Shown: one piece after another, positions 30,666-50,165 of the stretch | Numbering within the stretch: the stretch's first letter is position 1 | Layout: the number at the start of each line of letters is the position of its first letter | Virus record (IMG/VR): IMGVR_UViG_3300033075_001053 | Span: 1 to 64,000 of that record | DNA: 64,000 nucleotides | Source of the DNA: a virus | Taxonomy: Duplodnaviria > Caudoviricetes | Direction: 5' to 3' (one strand) | The notes under the pieces: model-generated | Database searches by the model: none | What the model was told of the DNA's origin: nothing | What the model saw: only the letters and a program-made list of their open reading frames with translations | Translations under genes and position numbers: made by a program

Positions 30666-30685
30666 CATAACCATAGGAACCAGTT

Positions 30686-31282: not shown

Positions 31283-31304
31283 TGTTGCAGTACTCTGTAA
31301 CAAT

Positions 31305-31333: not shown

Positions 31334-31351
31334 TATAGAAAAGGAGGAGGC

Positions 31352-32684: not shown

Positions 32685-32982
32685 TCGAGATACCGCCCTT
32701 CTAATAGTCGTTGCAATGGCGTTTACCTTTGCTATGTCGTCATGGTTGCAGAACTGCAAGCAAGACGAGATGGGAGTTGAGCTGGCAATGCTGCAAAGAT
32801 CCATTGAGATTCGTGACAGCGTTCACGCGGAGAACCGTCGGCAGGATTCGATCTTGATTGACTCTATCAAGAACATCAAAGCGGCGGCGACCTACTACCG
32901 CGAGAAGCAACGTCATCCGAAAGTTGACTCAGTAAGAAGTGGTGCAAAGAAGATTCTCATTGATATGTTTATCCCGCAATGA
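32671..32982 (+). CDS. spanin-like protein (N-terminal TM, coiled coil)
   Basis: Follows the endolysin; single TM then helical domain. Confidence 0.55.
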   Translation: MKNINRDTALLIVVAMAFTFAMSSWLQNCKQDEMGVELAMLQRSIEIRDSVHAENRRQDSILIDSIKNIKAAATYYREKQRHPKVDSVRSGAKKILIDMFIPQ

Positions 32983-33329
32983 AGTATCTGGTTATCATAT
33001 TGGCTCTGTCCTTCTCTGCACTGGCGCAGGATACGTGCTTTACCAAAGCGCAGCTTGACGCAATCGCAACCGGGGCGCTGGCTCTTAAGTGGAAGTATAC
33101 CTACTGTGACTCGGCCAGCGTGAAGGACAGTATCACAATTGCTCTGCAGGACTCGTTGCTCAAAAAGCGACTTGATGACATTAAACTTCTCGAGCAACAA
33201 AGGGTGGATGAGGCCAAAGCTCATGCCATCATTGTCAAGAAGTTAGAGGCGCAGCGTAGTACGTTCTGGGATAAGCTCCTATATGCCTTGGCCGGATTCG
33301 GTGCAGGGTATATTATTATTCACAAATAG
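32979..33329 (+). CDS. spanin-like protein (signal peptide, C-terminal TM)
   Basis: MKYLVIILALSFSALAQ signal; C-terminal hydrophobic helix. Confidence 0.55.
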   Translation: MKYLVIILALSFSALAQDTCFTKAQLDAIATGALALKWKYTYCDSASVKDSITIALQDSLLKKRLDDIKLLEQQRVDEAKAHAIIVKKLEAQRSTFWDKLLYALAGFGAGYIIIHK

Positions 33330-33337
33330 GGAGAGTT

Positions 33338-33886
33338 ATGAAGTATTTGGCCATGCTATTGTGTTGTGTTACACTTAGCGCACAAGGAAAGGCTATTACC
33401 GAGCTTGGGATTACCTTTCCAATTAAAAGCAGCGTGATCAAGAACTACGTTTCGACTAACGGGGTCAGCGCACTTCCACTGACCTCAGGATATTCGAGTG
33501 GAGTGGAGATTGGCCGGCACGGCGTCATCTCAAATCAGGCGACGGTTGGTGTCTTGGCCAATGCCAATATGTTCCTTGCCTCTGACTCTACGTGGATGAA
33601 TCAGATATATCAATTGGATGTCTTCTTGACCGGTAGACTGTACTTCGATGAATCCTGGAGGGGAGGCGTTTACGCAGAACTTGGCGCAGGCCCGGAGTTT
33701 TCTGCAGCGAAATTCAAAGGTGCTCCACTTGTGTATCAGATCAACATTGGAGCCCGGTTTGGTGTAGGATATAATTACAAATTCACAGATGATGTAACAA
33801 TAGGAATCGCGCTTGTGGCCGCCCCATCTCTGACCATGTCTGATTTCATGGATGGAGTGAAGGTGAGAGCAAGTATGCTTTGGTAG
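33338..33886 (+). CDS. outer-membrane beta-barrel protein (about 8 strands)
   Basis: Signal peptide, alternating amphipathic strands (GVYAELGAG, RFGVGYNY), terminal Trp. Confidence 0.7.
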   Translation: MKYLAMLLCCVTLSAQGKAITELGITFPIKSSVIKNYVSTNGVSALPLTSGYSSGVEIGRHGVISNQATVGVLANANMFLASDSTWMNQIYQLDVFLTGRLYFDESWRGGVYAELGAGPEFSAAKFKGAPLVYQINIGARFGVGYNYKFTDDVTIGIALVAAPSLTMSDFMDGVKVRASMLW

Positions 33887-33954
33887 TCATACCCGCTACA
33901 AGGTATGGTCCGCCGCACTGAGCATGGTTCCTGTAAGGTGCGGCAATTTTTACA

Positions 33955-34350
33955 ATGAAACACTTCAACGCCACAGCCGACACAACAATAAGCACTGGAT
34001 CCGGTGTTCTACTTGGCCGTCGCTGGGCGCCCCCCGGATACATTATTCCTACCGCTGCCGGGGTTGTCAATGATGATTACACAGAAATCCGAATCGAGTC
34101 CGAAAACGGTCTTGATTGGGAGGTGACGGAGACCAGTATTACAGTCTCCGGTAGCGACGTGTACTACAATCGTGATGGTGATTTCATTACCTCTTCGACC
34201 GGTGATCGGATTAACTTTCGAGCGGGGACGAAGAAGATCATTTTTACTATCAGTGAGAAGTGGCTGAACAAGCCCGATTGGGATGATATCCTTCTTGATT
34301 CGAACGGAAACATTCTGATTGACTCTAACGAACTAATCCTTACCCGGTAA
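33955..34350 (+). CDS. tail-associated adaptor protein
   Basis: Beta-rich 131 aa with acidic C-terminal ILLDSNGNILID peptide. Confidence 0.55.
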   Translation: MKHFNATADTTISTGSGVLLGRRWAPPGYIIPTAAGVVNDDYTEIRIESENGLDWEVTETSITVSGSDVYYNRDGDFITSSTGDRINFRAGTKKIIFTISEKWLNKPDWDDILLDSNGNILIDSNELILTR

Positions 34351-36254
34351 TGCTACACGTTGTCTTTGAAACTGACGCCCCAACCACTGCCCCGACCGAG
34401 ATCGGGCAGCACTGGTTTGATGTAACAAACAAGAAGTCGTACATATCCGTTGGGACGGACGACGTGGACGACTGGAAGGAAACGACAAGCTCCGGAATTA
34501 CCGGATCCGAATATACTGGCAGCAATCTTGGTTCAGGTGTGGCCGTGTTCGCACAGTTAGATGGGACAGACTTTCAGTTTAGAACCATTGAGGCCGGGCC
34601 GAATATTGGAATTGAAGTTGTTGGCGACACGATTCTTATTTCTGGGACGGCGTCGGTTTCTGGAACGGTCTCTGGGACAGGGTCGGACGTAGGAGCGCTT
34701 GGAGTATTTGGTAACAACCCCTCATCAGAAGTCACAGCAGAGGGATGGGTAAAGGCAGACGGCAGCACGGTTGATGGGTCTCTATATCCCGATGCCGTTC
34801 GGCGCAGAGTTCTGACGATGTTAGACAGCGGAAGATGGGCGGCTAATCTTGCGACGACGACGTATGACTTGAATCGAGATAGATTTATTGCGTGCGATTA
34901 TCAAGAGAAGTTAGCTTATAGTGATGATCGCGGTCAGACATGGACTCTGCTTAATGAAGGTACTGTATACCTAAACGGGTTTAAGGTTATTGTTCTTCCG
35001 AATGGAGATTACCTTGCGGTTGGCTTCTCGGTTGAAGGTGACGGGAGATGCGCTATGTACTCTCTCGACGGAGGGGATAGCTGGTCGGAATGTGCGGCCT
35101 TTGATCCCACGGTTTATTTCCTTTCTTACCCTTCAAGTCATGTTATTATTGGTGACCAGCTTCTTGTTTGTGGTGTAGAGGGTAATATGGCCCGTGTTTT
35201 TTATTATGATATATCCGGGGGAGACTATACTGGAGCATGGACAAGTATAGCTTTGCCTGACTTCCCAAATGCACTTGCCGGACAGGCCAATGTTATTTTA
35301 TACGATGTTACTCATGCCAGGCTCATGGCTATAGGTCGAACCAACAGGAATTCTGGGGCATATTGGACCGCGCCAATCTCCGATATTACGGCATGGACAG
35401 CAGGCGACGATCCGTTAATTCAAGGAACTCCAGCAACTATTACGGTAAGTTGTACTGATAATTTTGTAGATGGAGAATCAATACAACTTTGGAATCCTCT
35501 TACGTTTATGGATTCACCGTCGGATCCGTTCCATGTTCAAATAGGAGCAACGCTCGAGGATACGCTAAATAATCTTGCCGCAATGATTCAAGACGGGATA
35601 CTATATGACAGTGGATTTTATACATCAACACACGACGCGACTTCAATAACGCTTGAGACGTGGAACGCCAGTTATGCTGAATCATATACAGGCATTACGG
35701 TCAATGCTGCAAACGCTACGGCAGGTCCAACTGTTGGTGGATCGGGTCCTTATGAGTTATATGATGCAGTATTTGACTTGAACCAGGGAGCAATTGTTAT
35801 TACAAATCTTAGATACAATCAAGCTCAAGATCGTAATTGGCTTGTAGTATATTATTCTACAGGATCAAGCTTTTCCTCTGTAGAAACACCGCAACTGATA
35901 GATGAGAATTATAGAGACAATGGCTTCTGGCTGGTTGATGGAAGATATTACTTTCGACTTAGAGACAATTCTGATTTGTTCCTAAAATTGACAAGTACAA
36001 CTTTTGGGAATTTTGATAACTGGACCGTTCATGATTTTGACTTTTTTAGTTATGCAGACCCAGATGCCGTTGACTCAGCTTATCCCATATCGCTCATGAA
36101 CACAGGATTAGAAAAGTATTTTTACGCATCTTATGGTAAGGGATTTGTTGCCGAGGATCTAACAGGATCATTCGAAGTGTTGCCTCATATTGGAGTGCCA
36201 GCAACGTATGGAGTCCCTAATATGGGCGGTAATTTTTACATTAAACTACTCTAA
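34350..36254 (+). CDS. receptor-binding protein with BNR/Asp-box repeats
   Basis: YSDDRGQTW and YSLDGGDSW Asp-boxes; shared N-terminal anchor motif. Confidence 0.75.
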   Translation: MLHVVFETDAPTTAPTEIGQHWFDVTNKKSYISVGTDDVDDWKETTSSGITGSEYTGSNLGSGVAVFAQLDGTDFQFRTIEAGPNIGIEVVGDTILISGTASVSGTVSGTGSDVGALGVFGNNPSSEVTAEGWVKADGSTVDGSLYPDAVRRRVLTMLDSGRWAANLATTTYDLNRDRFIACDYQEKLAYSDDRGQTWTLLNEGTVYLNGFKVIVLPNGDYLAVGFSVEGDGRCAMYSLDGGDSWSECAAFDPTVYFLSYPSSHVIIGDQLLVCGVEGNMARVFYYDISGGDYTGAWTSIALPDFPNALAGQANVILYDVTHARLMAIGRTNRNSGAYWTAPISDITAWTAGDDPLIQGTPATITVSCTDNFVDGESIQLWNPLTFMDSPSDPFHVQIGATLEDTLNNLAAMIQDGILYDSGFYTSTHDATSITLETWNASYAESYTGITVNAANATAGPTVGGSGPYELYDAVFDLNQGAIVITNLRYNQAQDRNWLVVYYSTGSSFSSVETPQLIDENYRDNGFWLVDGRYYFRLRDNSDLFLKLTSTTFGNFDNWTVHDFDFFSYADPDAVDSAYPISLMNTGLEKYFYASYGKGFVAEDLTGSFEVLPHIGVPATYGVPNMGGNFYIKLL

Positions 36255-36505
36255 TGGTACACGTCAAATACGCAACAGCACCGCCGACAACGGCTCCTCT
36301 TAGAGCTGGTCAGCACTACATTGATACAGTCAATAAAGTCAACTATCTCTCAATCGGAACATCTTCGGTTGATGATTGGGTTGAAGTCGGGTCAAGTTCG
36401 ATCTCAAATATGTCTGAGATCAAAGCAGCAGTTATTAATAGTATTCTTACCGACGGGACGGACGTCTTGGTCGGAGAGGATGGAAATGTAATCTACGAGG
36501 ACTAA
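36254..36505 (+). CDS. small tail adaptor consisting mostly of the shared anchor domain
   Basis: N-terminus homologous to those at 34350 and 36507. Confidence 0.75.
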   Translation: MVHVKYATAPPTTAPLRAGQHYIDTVNKVNYLSIGTSSVDDWVEVGSSSISNMSEIKAAVINSILTDGTDVLVGEDGNVIYED

Positions 36506-36506
36506 C

Positions 36507-38528
36507 ATGGCACAGCATACCTTTTCGGCATCTGGCGTTCCGAGTTCGGCGCCGTCAAAAGTAAATCAGCACTACTGTAACCTGACAACGGGCGACCTGT
36601 ATATTTCCAAAGGAACGTCCAGCGTGGACGATTGGGTGTTGCTTGGCGAAAGCGTTCCGGGCTCCGGGCTTGCTATAGTCCAGCAGACGAACGCCGACTG
36701 GCAGTCGGATATGACAGTGTACGATCTTGGTACACTTATGGTCGATACCGACAATCCTACGGCGCTGAAGTTCGCCGATGGAGTGATGGTTTACACAGAT
36801 ATCACTTTTATCAATCACCCGTTTAACCAGATACCCGGTGGGATTGCTGGAGACTTTTACGATTATCCTGCGAACGATCAGATTCACATTCGCCTTCGTT
36901 CGGATACGGCGGCAAATTGGACGTCAGAGAATCCAACTCTGATGTTGGGAGAGGTTGGGGTTGAGACTGATACTTTGAAGGCAAAGTTCGGCGATGATAC
37001 TACTCCGTGGAACTCTCTTGGCTATTGGTATGATCCAACGGTAACGGCAAGCGGGGCGCTTTTAGCCGCAAACAATCTTTCTGACCTTGATGACCCGGCC
37101 ACGGCCAGAACAAACCTTGGTCTCGGTGATGTGGCTGAGATTAACAGAGGTGGGTCGAGCACGAGTCTTTACCTGCGCCAGGATGGTACGTGGTTCACTC
37201 CGGCCACTGATGTCGGAGGAGTGGCGTGGGGAGCGATCAGCGGAACGATTGGTGATCAGACGGATCTTATTGCGGCAATTGCAGCCGCCGGTACAAACCC
37301 AGCGAAGTACTTTTTGATGAGTGCTTATGCTACCAGCGGTACCGGTACTCAAGGAGACCCGTACACTGGTTGGGAATCAGTTATCGACAATACTACCTCA
37401 GGCAACTACAACCATTATCACTTCGATGAAGGAATGTGGTTCCGCACCGATGTAGGCATCGAGCTCGGTCAGACAACCCGTGGTGTTCACATTAGCGGTC
37501 GTGGAAGAATTGTGTACGAAGGCGTGTCAAATGTGCCGGTGCTATCCTTCCACAATGTAGGCGGATCAACGGACGCCGATTGGTCAGAGTTCAACATCAT
37601 CGAACAGGTAATCCTTGACGGTGGTGATAACGCAAGTCACGGATTCTACGCTACGCAATTCCACAGAAACCTCCTTCGCGATGTAGTTGTCGTCAATGCA
37701 CCGATTGGGTTCTATACAAGTTGGGCTGTGTGTGCCTATCACATTGGCCCGGCGTGTTCGCACGGATACGAAGTATCAAGTCGTCAGGATATTGTCACGG
37801 GTATGTACCTTGATGGAGCATCAAACTCGGCGGTAATCATCAATCCGTTTATGGAGTCAACGACCGGTACTGCAATTTCTATTAACAATACCAATAATAT
37901 TTCCATTATTGGCGGAAGTTTAGAAAATGGGAATGTTGGGTTGGCCACTTCAAACTCCAAGTGGATTACCTTGATGAATCAAGACGACGAGGTAAATGGT
38001 GGGGGCGATGTTCAGGTTGGCGGCAGTTGTGATTATATTGTAATTCAGAATTGTCAACTCCAGGACGGCGTCCGGTTCCAGAGTGGTAGCAACAATAAGA
38101 TTGTTGATAGCAATATATGGGGCACACTTACGATTGACAGTGGGGTTACGGTGGTCAGTGATAACTCGGTTATTGCGACACTTTCAAACTCTGGTACATT
38201 TATTGACCGCGATCAAGGAAATATCCGAATTAATACCCAGACCTCGGACTATACACTTGTCGCTGCCGATGCCGGAAAGATGGTGTTGATTTCATCAAGT
38301 TCCCCACATGCGCTTACTGTTCCTCCGAATTCATCTGTCGCCTTCTTAATTGGAACTGCGATAGACGTAGCTCAAACCGGGACCGGAGCAGTGACCTTAA
38401 CGCCGGGGTCAGGGGTTACGATTAATTCAGCCTCAGGGAATCTTGTTACCAATGGTCAGTATACTGCTTGCACGCTCTACAAAACTGGAACAAATACATG
38501 GCTTGCGGTAGGAAACTTAACAACCTAA
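36507..38528 (+). CDS. tailspike with Mtd-like N-terminal repeats and beta-helix (depolymerase-like) domain
   Basis: RSDTAANWTSENPTL.LGE.G.ETDT.K.KFGD motif; N/I/G-rich parallel beta-helix region. Confidence 0.8.
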   Translation: MAQHTFSASGVPSSAPSKVNQHYCNLTTGDLYISKGTSSVDDWVLLGESVPGSGLAIVQQTNADWQSDMTVYDLGTLMVDTDNPTALKFADGVMVYTDITFINHPFNQIPGGIAGDFYDYPANDQIHIRLRSDTAANWTSENPTLMLGEVGVETDTLKAKFGDDTTPWNSLGYWYDPTVTASGALLAANNLSDLDDPATARTNLGLGDVAEINRGGSSTSLYLRQDGTWFTPATDVGGVAWGAISGTIGDQTDLIAAIAAAGTNPAKYFLMSAYATSGTGTQGDPYTGWESVIDNTTSGNYNHYHFDEGMWFRTDVGIELGQTTRGVHISGRGRIVYEGVSNVPVLSFHNVGGSTDADWSEFNIIEQVILDGGDNASHGFYATQFHRNLLRDVVVVNAPIGFYTSWAVCAYHIGPACSHGYEVSSRQDIVTGMYLDGASNSAVIINPFMESTTGTAISINNTNNISIIGGSLENGNVGLATSNSKWITLMNQDDEVNGGGDVQVGGSCDYIVIQNCQLQDGVRFQSGSNNKIVDSNIWGTLTIDSGVTVVSDNSVIATLSNSGTFIDRDQGNIRINTQTSDYTLVAADAGKMVLISSSSPHALTVPPNSSVAFLIGTAIDVAQTGTGAVTLTPGSGVTINSASGNLVTNGQYTACTLYKTGTNTWLAVGNLTT

Positions 38529-38532
38529 GATT

Positions 38533-39387
38533 ATGTTTAGATCAGGAATTATATCAAGTACTGGAGTTGCTGGATCGAGTGGTGGAGGTGGGTCGGATGC
38601 TGATGCTGACGCATTTCTGGCGGCAGCAGGGATTTCCGACGCAACAATCTCCGGAGCAATAACACAGTTTTGTTTAGATCTGAAATCTGCAAGTATTTGG
38701 ACTAAGTTTGTTGCAGTGTATCCGTTTGTCGGAGGAACATCATCGACCCATAAGTACAATCTAAAAGATCCAAACGACACCGATGGTGCCTATCGTCTTA
38801 CGTTCGGTGGCGGTTGGACGCACGACAGTACGGGCGTCACTCCCAATGGTACGACCGGATACGCTGATACTCATATCAACGCTTCGACAGATCTTGACTT
38901 TCACGACGTGAGTCTTTCGGTGTACTTTGGCAGCGATACTGGTCCAGGGAATAAGTGCTGGTCTGGTATTCACGATCATGGCTTGGGTGACCCAGGTTGG
39001 CAACACATGGGCCATGTTGATTACTTTGGCGGAAGTAAGTACTTGGCCGATACTGGCGACTTTGGTTCTGCTCGACTATATGCTGATTTGACCGGTGGCA
39101 CATGTGATGAACAAATGCTTACGACAAGCAAGATCGGTACCGGGGCGAGCAACCACAAGCTCTATCAGGAAGGTGTCGAAATTGGAAGTATTAGCTCTGA
39201 TTCTGGCTCATTTCCGAATGATACTGTATACATCGGCTGCACTCACACAGTAGGAGCCGGGACCGAAGCAGGAACATTCGATGACAACCAGTACAAGTTC
39301 ATTGCATTTGGATTGGGATTAAACGGGACAGAGGCGGGTGCACTAAGTACTGCGGTTCATGCGCTTCAGTCGACTTTAGGAAGGTAG
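38533..39387 (+). CDS. lectin/concanavalin-like virion protein
   Basis: IWTKF.AVYPFVGG...NLKDP...RLTF.GGWTH...NGTTGYADT pattern seen in phage tail proteins. Confidence 0.55.
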   Translation: MFRSGIISSTGVAGSSGGGGSDADADAFLAAAGISDATISGAITQFCLDLKSASIWTKFVAVYPFVGGTSSTHKYNLKDPNDTDGAYRLTFGGGWTHDSTGVTPNGTTGYADTHINASTDLDFHDVSLSVYFGSDTGPGNKCWSGIHDHGLGDPGWQHMGHVDYFGGSKYLADTGDFGSARLYADLTGGTCDEQMLTTSKIGTGASNHKLYQEGVEIGSISSDSGSFPNDTVYIGCTHTVGAGTEAGTFDDNQYKFIAFGLGLNGTEAGALSTAVHALQSTLGR

Positions 39388-39389
39388 TA

Positions 39390-39635
39390 ATGCTCGGTCA
39401 TCACGGCATAGCAGTAGCAGGCATCACGAATTATCCTCTTGGCCCAACCGGAGGACGGCTTCCGGGGCTTCGCTATAAGACTCGGGAGAAGATGATTCTC
39501 TCGGTGGCTGCAGAGCGCCGCCGGGTTCAGTTCGTGACGCGTGAGAAGCAGAAGGCAGAGGCCGCCACGGAGAGAAGAAAGGTCCGCTATAAGACACGGG
39601 AGAAACGTGTTTCATACAGGGCTAATGTACGATAA
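39390..39635 (+). CDS. small Arg-rich protein with three xTREK repeats
   Basis: RYKTREK, QFVTREK, RYKTREK. Confidence 0.6.
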   Translation: MLGHHGIAVAGITNYPLGPTGGRLPGLRYKTREKMILSVAAERRRVQFVTREKQKAEAATERRKVRYKTREKRVSYRANVR

Positions 39636-39657
39636 CTTCTTGATGTATTTTTGAGAC

Positions 39658-40038
39658 ATGAGAGAATTAGACGACTATCCAATGCGCGAGGTGATTCGCG
39701 GAGACAGACTTGAAATCAATCTTCAGGTTGTGAAAGTCGTTGATTATGAAGAGGTTGTGCCGGACATTACAAACTACACCTTCATCTTCTCAATCAAAGA
39801 AACCATTGAAGATTCGATGTACATTTACCGGGACGTCTATGATGGTCTGGTGGTGGGAGGGATAACCCTTACGGATCCAACAAACGGGTGGATGAGAATT
39901 GTTGTTGAGGGTGGGTTAACGACATCCTGGGATCTCAAGGATTACGTCGCCGACGTGCAAATGCTTGATGATCAAGGGGATGGGCCGTACACAGTCAGAA
40001 AAGAAATCATTAGAGTCAAATCAGATATAACGAGGTAG
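39658..40038 (+). CDS. BppU N-terminal-like (Ig-fold) tail adaptor
   Basis: RGD.LEINL...DITNYT..FSIK...DPTNG.....Y.ADVQ pattern. Confidence 0.6.
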   Translation: MRELDDYPMREVIRGDRLEINLQVVKVVDYEEVVPDITNYTFIFSIKETIEDSMYIYRDVYDGLVVGGITLTDPTNGWMRIVVEGGLTTSWDLKDYVADVQMLDDQGDGPYTVRKEIIRVKSDITR

Positions 40039-40040
40039 CC

Positions 40041-40364
40041 ATGAACGAACTATTTTCTCCGCCGACCGCGGTACCCGACGACTTCACCTTGGGCGTGTCC
40101 AAGAAGAAGGACAAGAATAGCATTATGGATCGCAAGGCGTTTCGTCTTGGCGTTCAGACGGCTATCAACGCACAGACTCAGCAAAGTTTGAATCAACAAC
40201 AGTCCCAACTCCAGAACGCAACCATGCAGTTTCTTCAGATCCAGGCTCAAGCGGCCTTGGGTCAACAGGCTCTTGCTAATCAGCACATGCAGCAGAGCCA
40301 GGGCGGCGGACCTCAGGAGATGGTACATTATCACACAGCCTTGCCTAACCAGATGCCTCAGTGA
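40041..40364 (+). CDS. Gln-rich hypothetical protein
   Basis: 107 aa with Q-rich C-terminal half. Confidence 0.65.
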   Translation: MNELFSPPTAVPDDFTLGVSKKKDKNSIMDRKAFRLGVQTAINAQTQQSLNQQQSQLQNATMQFLQIQAQAALGQQALANQHMQQSQGGGPQEMVHYHTALPNQMPQ

Positions 40365-40993
40365 CCACTTATCAAATGATAGATCGGTTGAGGGACATGC
40401 TCGACGATCCAAAAGGTGGGCCAAGGAAAGTCGGTGAAAGTTACTCAGACCTTGAAATAATCAGCCAGCTCGACATTTCGACTCTGGATGTGACCCGTTT
40501 TTTCTATGAGAACCGGGCGATCTTTCGTTTGCAGCGCCTTGTCAAGGTCGAACAACTACAGATCTTAGGCGATCCCTATACCTATTCCAACTTCACAGAC
40601 GGGCTCTTTGTACTTCGGTGTACCTTTGGCCGTGTTCCGGCGCGGATTTATACCGGAGGACTCGGGGATATCTTTGAAGCGCCGGATCATTACGCGGTGA
40701 TGGTCGAAGGGTCAGACCTGGTTTTTGTTGGCGGACTCAATCTTGATGCGTGGTTTTGGTACATCAAAAAGCCAAGATTGTGGGGAGGAAACTTTTCTCT
40801 GGATCACACAGACTTCGAGCGGTCGGTCTATAACGCTATTGCTTATCACGCCGCCGGAACGCTGGCCATTAAGAACGAAGGAACAGAAGACGCAAGAACA
40901 GCCAATCGATACTTGTCCTACTACGGGCAACTTATCGGCAAGCTCGCGGAGGCCTCGTCTATGCAAATCATTATGGACGAGGTGGTGATGTGA
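40361..40993 (+). CDS. head-tail adaptor / tail ring-like protein 1
   Basis: MT.YQMIDRLRDMLDD helical start and FERSVYNAIAYHAA C-terminal helix. Confidence 0.65.
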   Translation: MTTYQMIDRLRDMLDDPKGGPRKVGESYSDLEIISQLDISTLDVTRFFYENRAIFRLQRLVKVEQLQILGDPYTYSNFTDGLFVLRCTFGRVPARIYTGGLGDIFEAPDHYAVMVEGSDLVFVGGLNLDAWFWYIKKPRLWGGNFSLDHTDFERSVYNAIAYHAAGTLAIKNEGTEDARTANRYLSYYGQLIGKLAEASSMQIIMDEVVM

Positions 40994-41613
40994 CCGTACG
41001 GCAAGCAGTCAATATCGTTCGAACAATGCTCGACCAAAGCGGGGAGGAGTTTTACCCAATTGTGGAAATCCTCATTGCGCTTGAAGACGCTCAGATCGAG
41101 AAGGCGCGGGAGTATTATCGCAGTGGTCGGCGGGAGTACATTCAAAGTCTCTATGTCGGAGAGTCAATGGTAAACGGCGGGCTCACGGCCAGAGGTGACG
41201 TAAGTCATGTTTTGACCTATGACCCAATGTTTTTCGAGGCGTGTTTTGTTCGGATGTATCCGGATGAATCTTCCGCTCGAAGATTTGCTATCTACATGGA
41301 CCCGGCCAGATATGCTGAGTATCAGTTTTCGAACCAGGGTGTAGATGGAATTCGAACAGGGAAGCTACAGTATACTTTTGCCGGTAATGTCCTTCGTCAT
41401 AACGGTGCGGACGACGGCGCAGGGGTTTACGCAGCCAGAGCGGTGTATTACCGCGAGCCTACGATCCCCTCGATCTCAACGGCATTCTTGCTACCGGACT
41501 ATACCCATGGCGATATCGTGGACCGGGCGGCCAAAATGCTCAATGAGAAGAACCCAATTAACGATCATGAAGCAGTAGGTTTAACAAGTGACATTATTCA
41601 AAGGAAACAGTAA
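40990..41613 (+). CDS. head-tail adaptor / tail ring-like protein 2
   Basis: MTVRQAVNIVRTMLDQ start and LPDYTHGDIVDRAA C-terminal motif. Confidence 0.7.
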   Translation: MTVRQAVNIVRTMLDQSGEEFYPIVEILIALEDAQIEKAREYYRSGRREYIQSLYVGESMVNGGLTARGDVSHVLTYDPMFFEACFVRMYPDESSARRFAIYMDPARYAEYQFSNQGVDGIRTGKLQYTFAGNVLRHNGADDGAGVYAARAVYYREPTIPSISTAFLLPDYTHGDIVDRAAKMLNEKNPINDHEAVGLTSDIIQRKQ

Positions 41614-41684
41614 TGGCAGGAAGCACAACAAGACTCGGCGTGAGAACAACACAAACTCACAATCCTCAGGATCTTAAACGGTGA
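41613..41684 (+). CDS. 23-aa peptide matching the MCP N-terminus (MAGSTTRLGVRTTQTHNPQDLKR)
   Basis: Manual translation; TAATG coupling; 17/19 identity to MCP residues 5-23 with mostly synonymous codon differences. Confidence 0.8.
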   Translation: MAGSTTRLGVRTTQTHNPQDLKR

Positions 41685-41698
41685 GAGAACATTCCTCC

Positions 41699-42463
41699 AT
41701 GTTGGTTCGTGAGGTGATTGATATCATCCAGGATCAGCTTTCTTTGTACGAAGACCGAACAAAGGTCGACGGCAAAACAATCTGGCGCTTTCTTAACAAC
41801 GCCAGAAGGGAGGTGTTTTCTCGAATGATACCAGTGAAGGAGCAGGGATTTACCAAGGTGGTTCAGCTTGGACACGGTAGTCCATTGCCGGCGGATTACT
41901 CGCGAACAATTCGCGTGTATGCTACAACTTCAGTAGGAATAGTCGAGTGCCGGCAGGCTGATCCTCGTGAGTGGTGGGACGTTACCAACCCGACCCGACA
42001 AAAGACCTTTACCTCTGGTAATGCCAGAAGCCCGGTGTATTGTCTGTGGGGAGAGATCTTAACGGGCGGGCGGGTGAGTCGGCTGGATAATACCTTAGGG
42101 ATATTGCCACTAACACTCACTGACCCGAATCGTGACAAGGTGTTTTTCTACATTTCTCCATCGGTCTCTGCGACTATGGAGTACAATGGGAATTATGGCG
42201 ACCTTCCGGTGGACGTCAATGGGAATCCTGATCTTGGAGTATCGATACAAGTTCCCTATGAGTATGAGGAGCTGGTTCTACTTCTAACCAAGTGGAGATG
42301 CTTTCTCAAGATCATGGATAAGTCTAAGTGGATTTCACTTAATCAAACAATGATGAGCGAGGAACAGAGACTACGAAAAGCCTTTATTGCCCGGGAGCAG
42401 ACCAAGAGTCAAGAGTTGTTGACCTTGATTGCCCCGCAACCATCAGTAACCCCTGATCTATAA
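41699..42463 (+). CDS. head-tail adaptor / tail ring-like protein 3
   Basis: MLVREVIDIIQDQL start; FLNNARREV; LP.DYSRTIRV; VPYEYEELVLL. Confidence 0.7.
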   Translation: MLVREVIDIIQDQLSLYEDRTKVDGKTIWRFLNNARREVFSRMIPVKEQGFTKVVQLGHGSPLPADYSRTIRVYATTSVGIVECRQADPREWWDVTNPTRQKTFTSGNARSPVYCLWGEILTGGRVSRLDNTLGILPLTLTDPNRDKVFFYISPSVSATMEYNGNYGDLPVDVNGNPDLGVSIQVPYEYEELVLLLTKWRCFLKIMDKSKWISLNQTMMSEEQRLRKAFIAREQTKSQELLTLIAPQPSVTPDL

Positions 42464-43302
42464 TGCCGCATACTTGCAAGACATACATGGAAGAGGCGAT
42501 GCTGAGGCTTAACCGGTACGAAGTTCAGGCCGAGCTCGACGACGGTTCAGCAGAGATGCTGGTCAATCTTGCGCGCCGGGATGTGCAACTGGCCACGATA
42601 GGTCTGTTCCCCGAACGCTACGCAGGCATTCACCGTCTTGACTTGGAGAACAATTTTCTCACAAGTGAGCTGCAGGAGTTCCGTCAAGTGATTACCAGAG
42701 GAGGCCTCCCGGATACTATTCGCTGGTATGGTTATCAACTCCCGGACGACTTCATTGAAGAGGTGGCTGTTTACGTAAAGTCAGAGGCCAATGGAGATTG
42801 GTGGCGAGCCCGAAAGACCACAAAGCAAGAGATGTGGGCGGTCTCTCGTAGCTCAACGCTGGCTCCGACAGTAAGAGAGCCAATGTATTTCGTGGAGAAA
42901 GACACTGATTCTGATGCTTATCGAATTGCCTGTAGTCACGGAGGAACGCCGATCATTGCTTCTGAGTGGATTGAGGTTTGGTACAAGAAAGCCCTGCGCT
43001 GGCTTCAGATGTTCAACAGCGACTACCAAGGGAATCCTGATGAGTCGGACATTGAGGTGGCGATGAATTATGAGTTCGAGGAATGGGTGGTCTACCGGCT
43101 TATGATCCGGGTTCTGGAGAAGCTTAATTGGGCAGACCAAAACATCAAACAAATCATTGATTTGGATATTCAGCGAATTGTATCTTTATCGAGTTCAAAC
43201 TTTAGTACAAGTATCGACGAAGTTGGGATATTGGTGCCGAGCAAGAGACAGACCTGGCCGGTCCCAACGTACGAAGTACCACATGAGGCTCCGCAACAAT
43301 GA
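42463..43302 (+). CDS. head-tail adaptor / tail ring-like protein 4
   Basis: LVNLARRDVQ, YQLPDDFIEE, MNYEFEEWVVYR motifs. Confidence 0.7.
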   Translation: MPHTCKTYMEEAMLRLNRYEVQAELDDGSAEMLVNLARRDVQLATIGLFPERYAGIHRLDLENNFLTSELQEFRQVITRGGLPDTIRWYGYQLPDDFIEEVAVYVKSEANGDWWRARKTTKQEMWAVSRSSTLAPTVREPMYFVEKDTDSDAYRIACSHGGTPIIASEWIEVWYKKALRWLQMFNSDYQGNPDESDIEVAMNYEFEEWVVYRLMIRVLEKLNWADQNIKQIIDLDIQRIVSLSSSNFSTSIDEVGILVPSKRQTWPVPTYEVPHEAPQQ

Positions 43303-44054
43303 CAACCTGGCACGAATACTACGACGACTTCGAGCAGAAGATCCGGCTCTACCAACAGCGACTTCCAATGACGGAAGTTTCTTTCATGCGTCTGGCCTCA
43401 GAAGCACTGCAGGCCGCAGAGCGTCGGACGGTTGTTGTCGATAACACTAAGACGATTTCCGGTACGGACGGGATTACCTTTGACCTTACGACAGCGGGTG
43501 AAGGGTATGATGTGCTGATTCTTCAAAAAGTTATCGATCCCTATGGTGCAGAGATAGTGCCTCAGTCTGTCAGTCAGAAGCAAGACAGCATGGAACTGGC
43601 ATACTATGGGCTTAACGAACCTCCGCACCGATTCTCTCGCGGGAAAGTAGGGACCACGATTGGCACTACGTCTGGGTACGAACACCGAATCTACGATTCG
43701 AATGGTTCGCAGATCAGAGTCTATCCGGCGCTCAGACCCAGTGATGTTCTAACGATACAGTACTTTGTTGAGATCCACAAGTTCTCCGCAAACTCCCCGC
43801 AGTGGGCGGCGTTCTTTCCGCTTAACACCGCCTTCGGTACGGCCTTCGAGCTGGCTCCGCCACTGGAATGGCAGCAACTCGACGACTGCATGATGGCTTA
43901 TTGTGTGATGGAGTACCTGATTAATATCGGTAATCCGAATTTTGTTGTTTGGCAGCAACGCTACGAACAGGCTTTGCAGACAGTGAAAGACAATCAGCAG
44001 ACATTCTTCACAGAGGGCGCGACCCCGTATACAACTACGCCTCATGGCTTCTAA
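43299..44054 (+). CDS. head-tail adaptor / tail ring-like protein 5
   Basis: IRVYPA...LTIQYF...LDDCMMAYCV...W.Q.YEQAL pattern. Confidence 0.65.
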   Translation: MTTWHEYYDDFEQKIRLYQQRLPMTEVSFMRLASEALQAAERRTVVVDNTKTISGTDGITFDLTTAGEGYDVLILQKVIDPYGAEIVPQSVSQKQDSMELAYYGLNEPPHRFSRGKVGTTIGTTSGYEHRIYDSNGSQIRVYPALRPSDVLTIQYFVEIHKFSANSPQWAAFFPLNTAFGTAFELAPPLEWQQLDDCMMAYCVMEYLINIGNPNFVVWQQRYEQALQTVKDNQQTFFTEGATPYTTTPHGF

Positions 44055-47000
44055 CAAACAGGTCATATTTCCCAACCTGGGACTTGCGATGAATCCTCAG
44101 CCTGATGCCATTCAGGATGGACAGGCCTCTGATATGTTGAACCTGCGCTTTAACAAGCTCGGGTATATGGTCAACCGCAATGGAGTGAAGGCATTTGACT
44201 TTGTGGAAGAAGTGATCCCGGTTGCCTCGTCTCTTACAGAAAAGACACACGGGGCTATGCAGGTCGGTGAGTTTATTCTGTCTCATAAGGTGATTGATTA
44301 CGTGACTTTTACCTGGGCGCATGATCTTTCGGACAATCAACTTCGTGCTGGTGCGGTTCGAATTGAAGATCACGATGAGACGGCAGAAATCTCCTATCCG
44401 GAATTCGACAGATTTATGGTCTTTGCTCTTCGCAACGAAGGCAATCTGATGAATCTGTATCTCGTTCCCTTGGTTCCGTTCGAGCCGGGGAATTATTTAT
44501 CGAATCAGAAGTCAGACATACGAGTTTCGATCTATGCCAACAACAATGACATTGCATTCTTCTGTGCTCCTGAAACGCCGGAAGGTAACGCTAAAGGTCC
44601 CATGCTCGCTCCGTCGCGCAGACTCAGTCGCAGCATTGACGGAAGTTGGATTGACGAGAACGGTACGATAGATGATCTTAATTGGATTGATCACTACATT
44701 GATTTCATTCAGTACAACAAGTCCTTTATCATCTGCGACCGGACTAACGGTGATATGATCATTCGCGACCGGTGGGATGACACGGAAACAGGAAATGAAA
44801 AGACTCACGACCTGCGACTTCAAGAAAACACAAAGGCATTCTTTGATATTGACTGTGTTCGTTTCGACCCACGAGTGGGGGAGGGAGAACAGAACGCTTC
44901 AGGAGTAGAACACGGAATGGCTTTGTATCACTTCTACCTCAAGCGCAAGCGAGCTCTGACGACCGTTGATAATGTTACCGATGGATTTATTAATCAGAGC
45001 GGAGACAAGCCGTCGTTTACAGAGGTTGACGACGGGACGGACAAGTACTTTGATATCGGGACAGAAATGACCCAACGTCTGCATAGATCAAATGCGTTTG
45101 CTCGTGGGTTTACGTCTGATGTGAAAAACAATGACGGCAATCATTTTGATGGACTGTTCAAAGCTTTACTTGTCAACAAGCAAAAAGACTATGTATTCTC
45201 AAGCTACAAAGAAGAAACTGAAATAGACAGTCTTTTAGATGCTGCAACTCTTTACAACCCAGAGAATCCTCGCAAGTTCGACGAGAACGGAGCCGAGATA
45301 ATTAATATTGCTTCTGATGTTTATATCTGGAATGATTTAAGACTGACGTATTATCCGTGCTCCGGCAAAGACGAGGGCGAAATCTATCTTCGAGACTACG
45401 ACAGAGAGTTCAGTAAGAAGGTTCCAATCAACCCGAGAATTGTAAAGCTCAAAACCAGACTCGGCATAGAACAGACCATTCCTCTTGGTGTGTGGGGCTA
45501 CCGGTTTGTGTGGGATATGGGCAACGGAGAGTACTCGGCTCCGTCGACCGTCATGCAGATCCCCGATAAACTGTGGTCTGCAATTCCTGATGATGAAATT
45601 TTAGATTACGGTGACGAGTATCATCGTTACTACACCTACTCTGGAACCGGAGGGGAGAGCGGCTGGGAGGAAAGATCCTCTGCCGATGGGAATTGGAGCC
45701 CGGGGATTTCCAATTTGACTGCCAATGCTATCTATACGGCAGCCTACAACAAGATCCGCCAGAAGCTTTACAATCAGCCGTTTGGCTACTCTACCAATAC
45801 AGCGATTGAGCAAACCCTAATTACGGTTTATCATCATTCTGATGAGTTAATACTTGATGGGGTAATTGCCGAGAGTGCGTATCTGTCAATGGAGTGTGAT
45901 GAAGATAATTGGAAGCTCAATAAAGTATCAATCGATTGGACTTTCCAACACAAACTTGCCATTCCGTTGGTTACACAAGATGGTTCGGACTATACACTAA
46001 ATCCAATATTTAATGCACGACAGAGCCTAACTTTCGATAGCAATGGGTTTATGCGGCGGTCTCTTAGTCCACAAGACACAATTGATTTTGAAATAATCCT
46101 GCCGGGCGACAGTATGAATTTCGGCCCAGGGATGGGAGATGTTGGGTATGACCTTCTTACGGGATATTGCGAGGTTCAAAGTACAAATGTTTGGTCTGAT
46201 ACTCCGTTCGGAGATGATGGCGAGTCTTTGTGGATGGATCCAGAAGGGATTCGCAGTCATGAGCCCGAGCGCACACGGCACCTTCAGGCTATTTCTCTGC
46301 AAAGCAACTTCTACTTTAATCTTGTTAGGAACAAAAGCACAGACTTCAATGGCAACAGTGCTATAGAACAGCCAACTATCTGCCGTTTTGTGAAAGAGCA
46401 AGACAAACGATTGTCATGGACAAAGATCGATGCCGATCCAGATGTGGTGTCAAGACTGATTAATACCGGAGTTGCAGAGTTTATCCTTGCTCAGAATGGC
46501 GATAAGGGTGTTTTAGCTAATGAGGTATGGTGGAGAGATTTGGTAGCGGGAGTAAGTCAAAGACAATATCGGGACCTATTGCAGTACGGATATGATCGTG
46601 AGTGGTCATTGACCGGAACGAATGATGGCGCTTTGGACCGCGGGCAAATTGTGAATATTACCAGCGGATCATACAAGCCTCATACTGCAGGAGTTCTTTG
46701 TTTGTACGACAGTTTTATCCAGCGGTTTTTCAAAAGAGATACCGGAAGCTTTACAGCCGACTATAACATGCGGGCTGGAAACGCATACACAATCAATGTT
46801 GAGCACATTCCTCAGCCGCCTCCCGATCCTCCTAAACACCCGGAGGATCCTACGATTGACAACCTTACGGTTGCCATGTATTTGCCGGGCGAACGCCTGA
46901 TGATCCCTGAACAGCTCACGGCGTACTTCCCGTCGTCGCACTTGTTCAACGCTCCGAAGGCATACTTCAAAATTGACGGGAAGGACATTCCTTCTCGCGC

Positions 47001-49617
47001 TAAACGGCTCTTGATCTACCGTACGCTTTGTTCGCACGACAATCAGTGGCAGCCGGATAGTTTTGGGTACGTTGACGCGGTCGCAGTCAATCGCGAGGAG
47101 ACGTTAGACTTTGTTGCTTCTGGTATTCCGTCAAAGGTATCGGTTCTGAAGACCAATGTTGCTGAGGATCTGACGTACTTTGATGAGAAGAAAGATACAG
47201 ATCTTGACTTCACCAAGAACCCTAATGATCACGATGGTTTAATTCACCCATTGCAAAGCCGGTTCGGACTCCCGCTGAACGAGCGGATGTACTACGCGCA
47301 CTTCAAGGAGACCTATCAACCCTACTCTCCGAGAGCGTTTGTTGTCAATGACTATCAGGACAACACAGCAGGGTCGGGTACGCTACAGCCGTCTTCTCCG
47401 GCGACCTCTCTTCACCCGCAATCACTCATTCCTATGCCAATGGAGATTGTGGTCAATGTTCAAAGTGGAACATTCGTAGAAGGAGAAACGATTACTGGAG
47501 CTACGAGTGGGGCCACGGCTACCATTTGGAAGATCTACGGCAATTTGTTTCAACTCAAGGATATTGTTGGAGCCTTTAAGGACGATGGGTCGGTCGAAGT
47601 CATCAACGGCGGGACATCTGGAGCTCAAGGGTGGATTGCCAACACTGACCAAACTCTAAGTGGGTTCAAGTACTACTATCACCGCTGGCCTCAGCTTTCC
47701 TTCAACAGTGTTTGGAGGGAGCTTAAAGCTCATGATACGGAAGACAATCGTAAGGCCGGGTACTCCCCGATGTTCCAAGGGAAGATTTTCCAGTACTTTG
47801 TTGTATTCAAGGACAAGATCGGAGAATTCTCTGCGATTAAGGGGGACAACGACGATCCTCTTACCGCCTCTCCTCTTCTTGGTTATCCTGATTACGAAGG
47901 ACAGGTGCCAACGCATTTCATTCAAGCGGACTTTTCTGCCGTGACCTCTGGTACTTTAGGAGCTGTGGCGTTTTGTTTAACCGGATATCCGTATCAGGAC
48001 ATTTACGAAGAGTGTGAAATCTACCGCTCGGATGTAACTAATGGCCCTGGGACAAACAAGTACTACAAGATCGGTCACATCAAAGCCAGCGACGAAGGGA
48101 TTTTCATCGACACCGGAATACCAAATGGTTTACCGTGGGACAAGTATGATCCTGATCTTGCAAACTATCCTATTAGTCCGCCGATGATAGAGGACTACCG
48201 TGACTCTGTCAGATGGAGCGAGGTTTATAGTCCGTCGGAAATCAAACTTGAATCCGTGGAATCTTTTCTTATCGGTAACGGAGACGGGATTACCGGTATT
48301 GCTCCGATTGATGGCTCTCTTCTGATCTTCAAGGAACGGTCGGTAATTCGCGCTATGACCGGTGGAGGGGTGGATATCACCCGCCGGGATATCATATCGA
48401 ATCAGTATGGATGTATCGCGCCGGAGACCATTGTCCCCTACAACGAGCACGTCTACTTTCTCTCGTGGTTTGGTCTGATGAGATACAACAACAATGAGAT
48501 TGTCAAAGCCGATGGAGCCTTCTCCTACGAGCTTGACCGGCGTCTGAGAAACCAGATCGACGGTATCCGCGACCCGGCTATTCGAGACGCTTCGTGTACC
48601 CTTAACCCGGTGTACAAGGAATTGTATCTCAATATCCCTACTGCTCCCGATCCTACGTATGATGTAGAGAACAAGGGAACGAAAGGACATATCTACGTCA
48701 TCAATCTTGAAACGAATCTTGTAACAAAGTTTGGCTATGAAACAGGAGACACAGACCGGCCTCGTACCGGGAATCCGGAGTATTGGTCGGAAGGACCGAT
48801 CCCGAGATATCAAGCCGGCGAAACAGTTGACCCTACGACTGGAACGTGGCCTCGCTCCCAGGGACGTTTATATTACGCAAACTCATACGGACAGCTCTGG
48901 AGTGCAGATATTCTTCCGCGCAATCAAAAGTCTCTTATTTGGATTACCGATCTCATTTTTCAAACGGGTGGTCCGGGTCTTCAAGTCGGAGAAATTGTAG
49001 ACGGGCTTGTTTCTGCAGCCGTCGGGAAAGTTTATGATGTAACAGGCAATGACATTGACGGATACAAGGTTCACGTTCTGATTCTCAACAAGAAGTTCAA
49101 CACTACAGGCGTGGAAAGACTTCGCGGACGTACGACTCAGGCAGAAGTTGATGTCAACTTTCTTGGCGATATCGATTACACCGAAGGAACTTCAAGCTAT
49201 GTATACCTGGAGGCTCCGACTGATCTGGAGACTGACGACTACCAACCTGGAATTGATATTGATGGGACTCCAATGCCGGGACCGTTGCTGGTGCGGGGGC
49301 TTATCCAAACGTGGTTTAGAACCAAAGCCTTTAACATGGGTGATCCTTCACAACTCAAACGAGTGTGGAAGGTTTATGCTGAGGTGGTGGCCGGGAAGAA
49401 CATTCGCATCACCATGGAGGCTGATAACAGTGAGTATGACAATGATCAAAGAAGCGGTGGTGGCTTTGGAGATGTTGGTAAGTTGGAGTTTGTTCCGCCG
49501 TTCAAGGAGGGCGTAGATCGTGGCGAAAGGATTACTTTTGAAGTTGCTTCTCGTGGCATCACTGAGATCCAGAACATGTCGTTCATTTGGAAAACACCTA
49601 ATCCGTATTACAGATAA
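44044..49617 (+). CDS. large tail stabilisation / nozzle (P22 gp10-like or muzzle-like) protein
   Basis: N-terminal LGL...PD.I.DG.A.DMLNLRF; propeller-type GDGITGI...LLIFKERS...YGCIAPETI...VYFLS.FGL. Confidence 0.75.
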   Translation: MASNKQVIFPNLGLAMNPQPDAIQDGQASDMLNLRFNKLGYMVNRNGVKAFDFVEEVIPVASSLTEKTHGAMQVGEFILSHKVIDYVTFTWAHDLSDNQLRAGAVRIEDHDETAEISYPEFDRFMVFALRNEGNLMNLYLVPLVPFEPGNYLSNQKSDIRVSIYANNNDIAFFCAPETPEGNAKGPMLAPSRRLSRSIDGSWIDENGTIDDLNWIDHYIDFIQYNKSFIICDRTNGDMIIRDRWDDTETGNEKTHDLRLQENTKAFFDIDCVRFDPRVGEGEQNASGVEHGMALYHFYLKRKRALTTVDNVTDGFINQSGDKPSFTEVDDGTDKYFDIGTEMTQRLHRSNAFARGFTSDVKNNDGNHFDGLFKALLVNKQKDYVFSSYKEETEIDSLLDAATLYNPENPRKFDENGAEIINIASDVYIWNDLRLTYYPCSGKDEGEIYLRDYDREFSKKVPINPRIVKLKTRLGIEQTIPLGVWGYRFVWDMGNGEYSAPSTVMQIPDKLWSAIPDDEILDYGDEYHRYYTYSGTGGESGWEERSSADGNWSPGISNLTANAIYTAAYNKIRQKLYNQPFGYSTNTAIEQTLITVYHHSDELILDGVIAESAYLSMECDEDNWKLNKVSIDWTFQHKLAIPLVTQDGSDYTLNPIFNARQSLTFDSNGFMRRSLSPQDTIDFEIILPGDSMNFGPGMGDVGYDLLTGYCEVQSTNVWSDTPFGDDGESLWMDPEGIRSHEPERTRHLQAISLQSNFYFNLVRNKSTDFNGNSAIEQPTICRFVKEQDKRLSWTKIDADPDVVSRLINTGVAEFILAQNGDKGVLANEVWWRDLVAGVSQRQYRDLLQYGYDREWSLTGTNDGALDRGQIVNITSGSYKPHTAGVLCLYDSFIQRFFKRDTGSFTADYNMRAGNAYTINVEHIPQPPPDPPKHPEDPTIDNLTVAMYLPGERLMIPEQLTAYFPSSHLFNAPKAYFKIDGKDIPSRAKRLLIYRTLCSHDNQWQPDSFGYVDAVAVNREETLDFVASGIPSKVSVLKTNVAEDLTYFDEKKDTDLDFTKNPNDHDGLIHPLQSRFGLPLNERMYYAHFKETYQPYSPRAFVVNDYQDNTAGSGTLQPSSPATSLHPQSLIPMPMEIVVNVQSGTFVEGETITGATSGATATIWKIYGNLFQLKDIVGAFKDDGSVEVINGGTSGAQGWIANTDQTLSGFKYYYHRWPQLSFNSVWRELKAHDTEDNRKAGYSPMFQGKIFQYFVVFKDKIGEFSAIKGDNDDPLTASPLLGYPDYEGQVPTHFIQADFSAVTSGTLGAVAFCLTGYPYQDIYEECEIYRSDVTNGPGTNKYYKIGHIKASDEGIFIDTGIPNGLPWDKYDPDLANYPISPPMIEDYRDSVRWSEVYSPSEIKLESVESFLIGNGDGITGIAPIDGSLLIFKERSVIRAMTGGGVDITRRDIISNQYGCIAPETIVPYNEHVYFLSWFGLMRYNNNEIVKADGAFSYELDRRLRNQIDGIRDPAIRDASCTLNPVYKELYLNIPTAPDPTYDVENKGTKGHIYVINLETNLVTKFGYETGDTDRPRTGNPEYWSEGPIPRYQAGETVDPTTGTWPRSQGRLYYANSYGQLWSADILPRNQKSLIWITDLIFQTGGPGLQVGEIVDGLVSAAVGKVYDVTGNDIDGYKVHVLILNKKFNTTGVERLRGRTTQAEVDVNFLGDIDYTEGTSSYVYLEAPTDLETDDYQPGIDIDGTPMPGPLLVRGLIQTWFRTKAFNMGDPSQLKRVWKVYAEVVAGKNIRITMEADNSEYDNDQRSGGGFGDVGKLEFVPPFKEGVDRGERITFEVASRGITEIQNMSFIWKTPNPYYR

Positions 49618-50165
49618 TGGCTGAAACCCAGAAACTAAAAGCAAGATGGCTTCGAGATGGCCTCTACGACCAGATCATCAAAGGGTACGGAATAGATATT
49701 GGCTGTGGCAGAATTGATGCTTTTGACGGGGCGGATCCGATTGCCCTGGAGAACTGTGTTCACCACGATAAGGATATTTGCGACGCGCACACGATGTCGG
49801 TCTTTGAGGACAATACCTTTGATTACGTATACGCAAGTCACGTCATCGAGCACCTGAAGGATCCACGCAAGGCGGTAAAGAATTGGGTTCGCATCTGCAA
49901 ACCAGGAGGGAAGATTATCATCTACGCTCCTCACAGAGATTTGTACGAAGGGAAGAAGACTCTTCCGAGTGTGTGGAATGCTGATCACAAATACTTCTTT
50001 CTCCCTGACAAGTCTGAGATGCCGTGCACGCTTTCGCTTGCCGACGTTCTGAAGGACTGCGGGGCTACAGTTGATTGGATCAAGGAGTGTAGTGAAGGCT
50101 GGTCTAAGGAAGAAGGACAACATGCAACAGGTGAATATTCAATCGAGGCTGTGCTAACGAAATGA
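49617..50165 (+). CDS. class I SAM-dependent methyltransferase
   Basis: IDIGCG motif I; FDYVYASHVIEHL; RICKPGG. Confidence 0.88.
   Translation: MAETQKLKARWLRDGLYDQIIKGYGIDIGCGRIDAFDGADPIALENCVHHDKDICDAHTMSVFEDNTFDYVYASHVIEHLKDPRKAVKNWVRICKPGGKIIIYAPHRDLYEGKKTLPSVWNADHKYFFLPDKSEMPCTLSLADVLKDCGATVDWIKECSEGWSKEEGQHATGEYSIEAVLTK

Follow-up and report, generated by a model that had tools for sequence, protein, structure and literature searches.

The genome and its head and neck genes

The window analyzed here comprises 64,000 nucleotides (positions 1 to 64,000 of the IMG/VR record IMGVR_UViG_3300033075_001053) of an uncultured podophage whose whole genome measures 75.5 kb and is 97% complete. A megablast of the region 28000–44100 against 50,697 phage genomes gave no nucleotide match. 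The phage encodes a P22-type portal, an SU10-type major capsid protein (MCP) and several giant proteins, and a gene in the scaffold position sits between those of the portal and the MCP. The MCP was assigned to the Pfam family SU10_MCP (33.6 bits versus a cutoff of 24.1) and has few relatives, one at 99% and seven at 56–63% identity. Its N-terminus, MPSTGSTTRLGTRTTQNHNPQDLL, is the most conserved region of the protein over eight orthologs (56–100% identity), and an invariant acidic patch, L-P-D-V-D-E, occupies residues 24–29. A structure model of the MCP, made from an alignment of eight sequences (pLDDT 48.6), was too poor for placing the socket of the N-terminal arm, and a sequence search of the PDB with the same protein returned a single weak match, the VP1 capsid. 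Elsewhere in the window, a protein of 673 amino acids (36507–38528) carries a Mtd_N domain (major tropism determinant N-terminal, E 2.8e-9) and is probably a receptor-binding protein.

Between two genes of the neck and tail region we have found a micro-gene of 23 codons, the product of which, MAGSTTRLGVRTTQTHNPQDLKR, reproduces almost exactly residues 5–23 of the MCP of the same phage (Table 1). The hidden ORF had been reported in a first-pass annotation of this DNA, together with its TAATG coupling to the upstream gene, and it reads as described there; it was left uncalled in all three database versions of the locus.

Table 1. Features of the micro-gene locus and of the MCP gene, in window positions.
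Feature	Position	Strand	Basis or remark
MCP gene, SU10_MCP family; source or model of the arm	28742–30043	+	Pfam
MCP codons 5–23, the copied N-arm tip	28754–28810	+	11 positions invariant in 8 MCP orthologs
GAGAACATTC, leader/RBS of the next gene downstream of the MCP	30048–30057	+	Directly after the MCP stop
Upstream adaptor-like ("ring") gene, 207 aa; stop overlaps the micro-gene start	40990–41613	+	Ortholog P0014 grouping
Shine-Dalgarno-like AAGGA, 7 nt of spacer, then the stop/start overlap TAATG	41601–41615	+	Matches the adaptor initiation region in L010 (TAAGGAGCAGTAATGGCAG)
Micro-gene, 23 codons: M-A, copy of MCP residues 5–23, K-R-stop	41613–41684	+	ATG to TGA; intact in L009 and L024
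Arm core GSTTRLGVRTTQTHNPQDL, 19 codons; agrees with the MCP arm at 17/19 residues	41619–41675	+	Versus MCP residues 5–23
SU10/T7-type head-to-tail adaptor gene; probable start GTG 41681, alternative ATG 41699	41681–42463	+	Pfam PF24175, Foldseek, ortholog alignment
GAGAACATTC, exact twin of the post-MCP leader	41685–41694	+	Directly after the micro-gene stop

The gene located downstream of the micro-gene is an adaptor by several lines of evidence. It scored 28.5 bits with PF24175 (SU10_adaptor), above the cutoff of 27, and the best Foldseek match of its AlphaFold model (six sequences, pLDDT 68) was the SU10 tail adaptor 7z47_B, followed by Vibrio phage VP1, Pa223 and the ring proteins of phicrAss001 (probability 1.0, with a TM of about 0.3 over an extended fold). 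By language-model features (0.97), the ortholog P0014 of the upstream gene falls among SU10_adaptor clusters; BLASTP found no similarity between the upstream gene and the adaptor, the kinship coming from those features of the ortholog only. Both flanking genes are thus adaptor-like, and the micro-gene lies between two members of a tandem adaptor/ring set. The first-pass annotation had called these neighbors ring-like genes, and their fold can be refined to that of the SU10/T7-type adaptors. Five tandem genes coding for 207–279 amino acids extend over 40361–44054, with an adaptor signal detected by Pfam in two of them (that at 43299–44054 scored 26.7 bits for SU10_adaptor, just under the cutoff) and by language-model features in the ortholog of a third. 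This arrangement suggests a stacked, multi-ring tail barrel outside Crassvirales, resembling the stacked paralogous ring/adaptor proteins of phicrAss001 (PMC10172136).

The whole region 40041–50500 is an unbroken chain of coupled genes (three GTGA, three TAATG and two ATGA junctions and one overlap of 11 nt) that links the adaptor/ring genes and a protein of 1857 amino acids. In the relatives L004 (9297–10004) and L003, at 35% identity, the upstream ring gene has a C-terminus 28 residues longer (...KQVLRQQYKKDIENRPTTELE). These added residues bear no relation to the arm peptide, which means that no copy of the arm is fused there.

A copy conserved as peptide

The 17/19 identity given in the first-pass annotation, with different codons at 12 of the 17 identical residues, was obtained again when recomputed and is beyond chance. 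At the DNA level 37 of 57 nucleotides coincide between the arm core and the MCP gene. By codons, five are the same, 12 differ synonymously and two are replacements, and 13 of the 20 nucleotide differences fall at third positions. The codon usage of the phage structural genes alone predicts the same codon at 5.4 of the identical residues, against the five observed, so the DNA similarity does not go beyond what the peptide dictates; synonymous sites are saturated between both copies. Regarding residues, the peptide of the window retains all of the 11 core positions that are invariant in the eight MCP orthologs, and both replacements lie on columns that vary among MCPs. It has the lineage-specific G-S-T-T and His of its own MCP plus a Thr found in other MCPs, a pattern that fits an old duplication inside this lineage.

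The match is unique within the genome. A tblastn of the MCP against the whole 75.5 kb found the micro-gene as the only second place (E 1.4e-5), and a six-frame search of the window gave no other copy of the arm. When 889 small ORFs were compared with 50 large ORFs by blastp(-short), the pair formed by micro-gene and MCP had an E value of 2e-13 and all the other matches were at 6e-5 or worse. The saturated synonymous sites, together with the dN/dS between carriers (below), support an arm copy that is a separate small ORF, conserved as peptide rather than as DNA.

Anatomy of the junction

The micro-gene has its own Shine-Dalgarno box and start codon and overlaps both neighbors: the stop of the upstream gene overlaps its ATG in TAATG (41611–41615), and its TGA overlaps GTG 41681 in GTGA, junction types that are the same ones used throughout 40041–50500. 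The adaptor most likely restarts at this GTG rather than only at ATG 41699, judging from the alignment of the GTG-started protein (260 aa) end to end with five orthologs (M-x-x-x-S-S-M/L, with M1, S5 and S6 invariant). The two preceding genes likewise appear to start with GTG in GTGA overlaps (40361 and 40990). The ATG at 41699, which had been proposed as the start of this gene, is a possible alternative, but the GTG provides an N-terminus of ortholog length.

In the relatives nothing separates the upstream gene from the adaptor. The junction of L010 (...TAAGGAGCAGTAATGGCAGTT...) encodes MAVNYSSMTVRE, while L003–L008 and L025 have ATGA overlaps and encode MIL(Y/P)SSMTV, as do L012 and L013. 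The initiation region of L010, TAAGGAGCAGTAATGGCAG, corresponds to AAAGGAAACAGTAATGGCAG in the window, which shares the Shine-Dalgarno box and TAATGGCAG with L010 and then runs into the arm. By this comparison the micro-gene sits at what appears to be the ancestral start site of the adaptor, using the Shine-Dalgarno box and TAATG that relatives use for the adaptor itself. Its product looks like the original Met-Ala of the adaptor followed by MCP residues 5–23, and we infer that a net insertion of about 65 nt shifted the rest of the adaptor out of frame. The joins resemble microhomology, as the ATGGCAG of the adaptor and the ...ACAG|GA of the MCP share CAG|GA and a CATTC is common near the 3' side.

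A likeness between the leader of the gene at 30058 and that of the gene at 41699 had also been pointed out earlier, and it is real: the window contains just two exact instances of the 10-mer GAGAACATTC, both directly behind the stop of an ORF bearing the arm, and both carrier lineages retain it (see below). This suggests that the pasted piece may be an internally deleted copy of the MCP gene, while part of the 10-mer (CATTC) may represent ancestral adaptor codons. The 10/10 match sits oddly beside saturated synonymous sites.

At the level of RNA, AUGG(C)AGGAA (41613–41623) can pair with UUCCUCCAU before ATG 41699 (41690–41700) through 9 bp with one bulge, looping the micro-gene, a pairing that is not statistically supported. 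We discarded an RNA element in place of a gene: the fold of 41590–41780 falls short of significance (z = −1.84; 9 of the 200 shuffled sequences folded as well), and in L009 the 9 bp that would join the start of the ORF to the leader with CCUCC are reduced by one, without compensation. A search for internal promoters or terminators gave nothing above the shuffled expectation. An alternative genetic code was rejected as well, since many genes of the cluster end in TGA and readthrough does not reach the adaptor frame.

Carriers and relatives

Two further assemblies carry the micro-gene, the Logan assemblies L009 (SRR27448546) and L024 (SRR27448536), which together with the window make three independent assemblies of two lineages. 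The micro-gene is absent at the junction in L012 and L013, with MCPs at 59% identity, and in L010, L003–L008 and L025, with adaptors at 33–41% identity and read at the adaptor junction only. Within the loci of the relatives, other copies of the motif were sought and none appeared outside the starts of the MCPs.

Wider searches gave a similar picture. Protein-pattern scans of viral contigs with adaptor and MCP yielded no further carriers, and the degenerate DNA pattern of R-L-G-x-R-T-x-Q-x-x-N-P-Q-D had no hits in viral contigs and one, an ordinary MCP, in metagenome contigs. A phmmer search with MCP residues 1–55 against 1.84 billion representatives gave one more MCP and a spurious TPR protein, and no free or fused copy; no protein of 30–237 amino acids shared words with MCP residues 1–40. 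As to conservation in relatives, a point raised in the first-pass annotation, the micro-gene is kept in two lineages and is without counterpart in the more distant relatives named above. That these relatives assemble without it counts against reading it as a free arm.

Selection between the two lineages

We compared the window with the lineage of L009 and L024, a test that involves seven substitutions and two lineages. The start, stop and length of the micro-gene are unchanged. There are five synonymous and two non-synonymous changes (T13S and L21R), with a dN/dS of 0.106 and a binomial p of 0.012 against neutrality, and in simulations seven random substitutions left an intact ORF with two residue changes or fewer in 1–2% of the cases. 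Meanwhile, the neighboring genes have diverged considerably, with nucleotide identities and dS of 93% and 0.39 for the MCP, 89% and 0.56 for the adaptor and 83.5% and 1.7 for the 3' end of the upstream gene. With dS values of 0.39–1.7 around it, the micro-gene has had time to decay. Its constraint is nonetheless the weakest in the cluster, where the dN/dS of the neighbors ranges between 0.009 and 0.04.

The value of this test is that its result does not depend on where the copy came from, whereas the synonymous saturation against the MCP could have arisen inside a donor MCP gene. The claim made in the first-pass annotation, that selection acted on the peptide and that no recent DNA duplication was involved, agrees with both results, i.e., the saturation and the dN/dS of about 0.1 between carriers. 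T13S hits a position invariant in MCPs, and the MCP arm of L009 and L024 is unchanged, so that neither T13S nor L21R is mirrored there; the copy hence does not strictly track the MCP. The data point to purifying selection on the micro-gene as a peptide-coding gene, a signal that is real but thin.

A possible role at the portal vertex

In HK97-fold shells the N-arm of the capsid protein makes contacts between subunits and between capsomers. The anatomy of the micro-gene, its coupling signals, its conservation and the selection on the peptide are established, and from them we infer translation, a binding partner and a location in the virion as follows. Codons 5–23 of the MCP would have been pasted into codon 2/3 of the adaptor gene, perhaps carrying on the 3' side the 3' leader of the MCP gene. 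The pasted piece would have taken over the Shine-Dalgarno box, ATG and Ala codon of the adaptor as its own start, and would end in the TGA that overlaps the GTG restart of the adaptor. Ribosomes would go from the ring gene through TAATG to the peptide of 23 residues, and from there through GTGA to the adaptor, releasing free peptide in amounts near those of the adaptor. The peptide would then fill, in trans, a site normally held by the tip of the MCP arm. The likeliest place would be the portal vertex, where, for lack of a penton, the neighboring hexamers have five vacant arm sockets and a 5-fold shell needs sealing against the 12-fold stack of portal and adaptor. The position of the micro-gene, among adaptor/ring genes of the portal-proximal tail, counts in favor of this place. 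Against the model, a free peptide of 22–23 residues may be unstable.

Of the explanations considered, we rate as the most likely, while holding it only tentatively, that this is a real, lineage-specific and translationally coupled micro-gene whose product is a free peptide imitating the tip of the MCP N-arm, perhaps as a filler of the portal vertex. A bolder version, which we regard as doubtful, is that the peptide is a virion component, with 5, 10 or 12 N-arm tips plugging the sockets vacated by the penton and reconciling the 5-fold shell with the 12-fold stack, and that along with the unrelated genes of the T4 61.1 type it represents a recurrent, independently evolved and hitherto undescribed class of phage head proteins.

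Comparison with known systems

The first-pass annotation stated that no gene of this type had been described. This holds for the literature searched, in which we found no description of a free copy of an MCP arm and no phage reported to encode the arm separately. There is, however, an unstudied analogue in T4, gene 61.1, for which the literature search found just two mentions in passing and no study of function. Residues 2–38 of gp61.1 (54 aa, annotated as hypothetical) are 46% identical to residues 57–93 of gp23 (E 6e-9), i.e., like the micro-gene it is a small free-standing ORF that copies an N-terminal segment of the MCP of its own phage. The micro-gene had no PHROG hit at E values up to 1, PHROG 1823–2086 of the T4 type included, and the MCP families differ, that of this phage being SU10_MCP; its product has 23 residues versus 50–85 in the T4 type. 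The copy begins at residue 3 of the peptide, without a leader or a copied protease site in front of it, and corresponds to the extreme N-terminus of an MCP for which proteolytic processing is not evident. While gp61.1 ends in a basic, lysine-rich tail (KKKKEESKEKEE), the micro-gene ends in K-R-stop, and while gene 61.1 adjoins the primase, the micro-gene is found inside the neck/adaptor operon of a podovirus. Given that there is no detectable sequence relationship, that the length is less than half, that leader and basic tail are missing and that the site is a neck operon, we consider the micro-gene an independent instance of the T4 61.1 design and not a member of the family.

Other comparable cases are found among proteins of the portal vertex. 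The PVP of P74-26 is specific to this vertex and its N-arm adds a strand to the P-domain sheet of the MCP (PMC12407722), and gp57 (PVA) of phicrAss001 replaces an auxiliary protein occluded by the portal (PMC10172136). Both are small proteins that bind only around the portal aperture and substitute contacts lost with the penton or its accessory protein. They are, however, folded proteins unrelated to the MCP, whereas here we would have a bare copy of 19 residues of the MCP arm that may sit at the portal vertex. That phages do make up for the missing penton with such proteins favors the filler model, in which an arm tip supplied in trans from a gene next to the adaptor would be a simple variation.

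Alternative explanations

The micro-gene could be a neutral remnant, left when illegitimate recombination dropped an MCP fragment (from this phage or a diverged relative) into the 5' end of the adaptor gene, with a functionless peptide that persists only by preserving coupling. The microhomology-like joins and the absence of the micro-gene in all the more distant relatives would agree with this, a diverged donor would explain the many synonymous and few replacement differences by selection acting on that other MCP, and the constraint between lineages is the weakest in the cluster. Nevertheless, start, stop and frame have been kept since the lineages split, over neighbors with dS of about 0.4–1.7 and with the excess of synonymous changes (p ~0.01) described above, and the copy in the window retains every residue invariant in MCPs. 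We consider this origin without function unlikely. Somewhat less probable still is that the free peptide acts away from the capsid sockets, rivaling the MCP arm in binding the scaffolding protein or the portal during assembly (in the timing or release of the scaffold), or serving as a decoy for a host factor or defense sensor that recognizes the MCP N-terminus. In P22-like phages the N-arm of the HK97-fold coat is a short linear motif on which another assembly protein docks, the scaffold hook, through Asp14, Glu15 and Glu18 (PMC12005531). The portal of the phage studied here is also of the P22 type, there is a gene in the scaffold position, and conservation within the MCP is highest in the arm, as expected of a motif with several partners. 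But the copy stops short of L-P-D-V-D-E, which directly follows the copied segment in the MCP and is the best analogue of the P22 contact residues, and since it ends just before this patch the role of scaffold competitor is mildly disfavored. Besides, expression at adaptor level would be sub-stoichiometric to hundreds of copies of MCP and scaffold, and nothing in the window indicates a defense context.

The remaining explanations concern the adaptor. In one, which we find improbable, the micro-gene is a coupling or leader ORF the translation of which, with termination at GTGA, sets the expression of the adaptor, the peptide being a by-product or a nascent chain acting in cis. It is true that the only good Shine-Dalgarno box and ATG before the adaptor belong to the micro-gene, that the two candidate starts of the adaptor (GTG 41681, or ATG 41699 behind a leader containing CCUCC) have weak signals of their own, and that the Q-D codons CAG GAT supply an AGGA (41668–41671) 9 nt 5' of the GTG. 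A pure device of this kind, however, would keep neither 17 of 19 residues of a specific MCP motif nor a dN/dS of about 0.1 with third positions changing freely, and relatives couple the two genes directly. The other is a fusion by −1 (or +2) recoding, by which some adaptor subunits would be tagged with a capsid-binding N-terminus. Such programmed frameshift fusions exist in phage structural genes, e.g., T7 10A/10B and lambda G/GT, which share with our case the presence of two overlapping frames in a late structural operon. In favor of a fusion, the micro-gene begins at the ancestral start of the adaptor, whose frame lies at −1 with respect to the micro-gene and stays open from 41678 onward; 41681–41698 is, in addition, homologous to coding sequence in the orthologs. 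The −1 shift suggested in the first-pass annotation is nevertheless not supported: because of a TAA at 41675–41677 the −1 frame opens only 3 nt ahead of the stop, leaving AAA-CGG as the only place that could slip, and there no X XXY YYZ heptamer is present and both tRNAs would re-pair poorly. Nor does the local fold reach significance as a stimulatory structure (the z value is given above), and in these respects the case differs from those of T7 and lambda. The same annotation had suggested that a missing A might hide a fusion of the arm to the next ring protein. This error is excluded because the window, L009 and L024 share the frame break, with the same frame layout and an identical AAACGGTGAGAGAACATTCCTCCATG. 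No adaptor homolog was found with an N-terminal arm, and we regard a fusion as very improbable.

What the micro-gene may mean

Returning to the free mimic of the MCP arm, the closest kinds would be the portal-vertex auxiliary factors or the micro-proteins that mimic a motif. If the peptide is made and used, this phage solves a local problem of assembly by re-encoding an interaction motif of 19 residues of its MCP as a separate micro-gene. It would then be a new type among the few known capsid factors specific to the portal vertex, and an independent second example beside T4 gene 61.1, one that can be tested genetically. The precise takeover of the adaptor start site illustrates cleanly, in nature, how an operon with coupled translation can take in a new gene. 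Standard gene callers miss a gene of 23 codons, and the case argues for screening phage genomes for ORFs below 30 codons that copy the termini of structural proteins.
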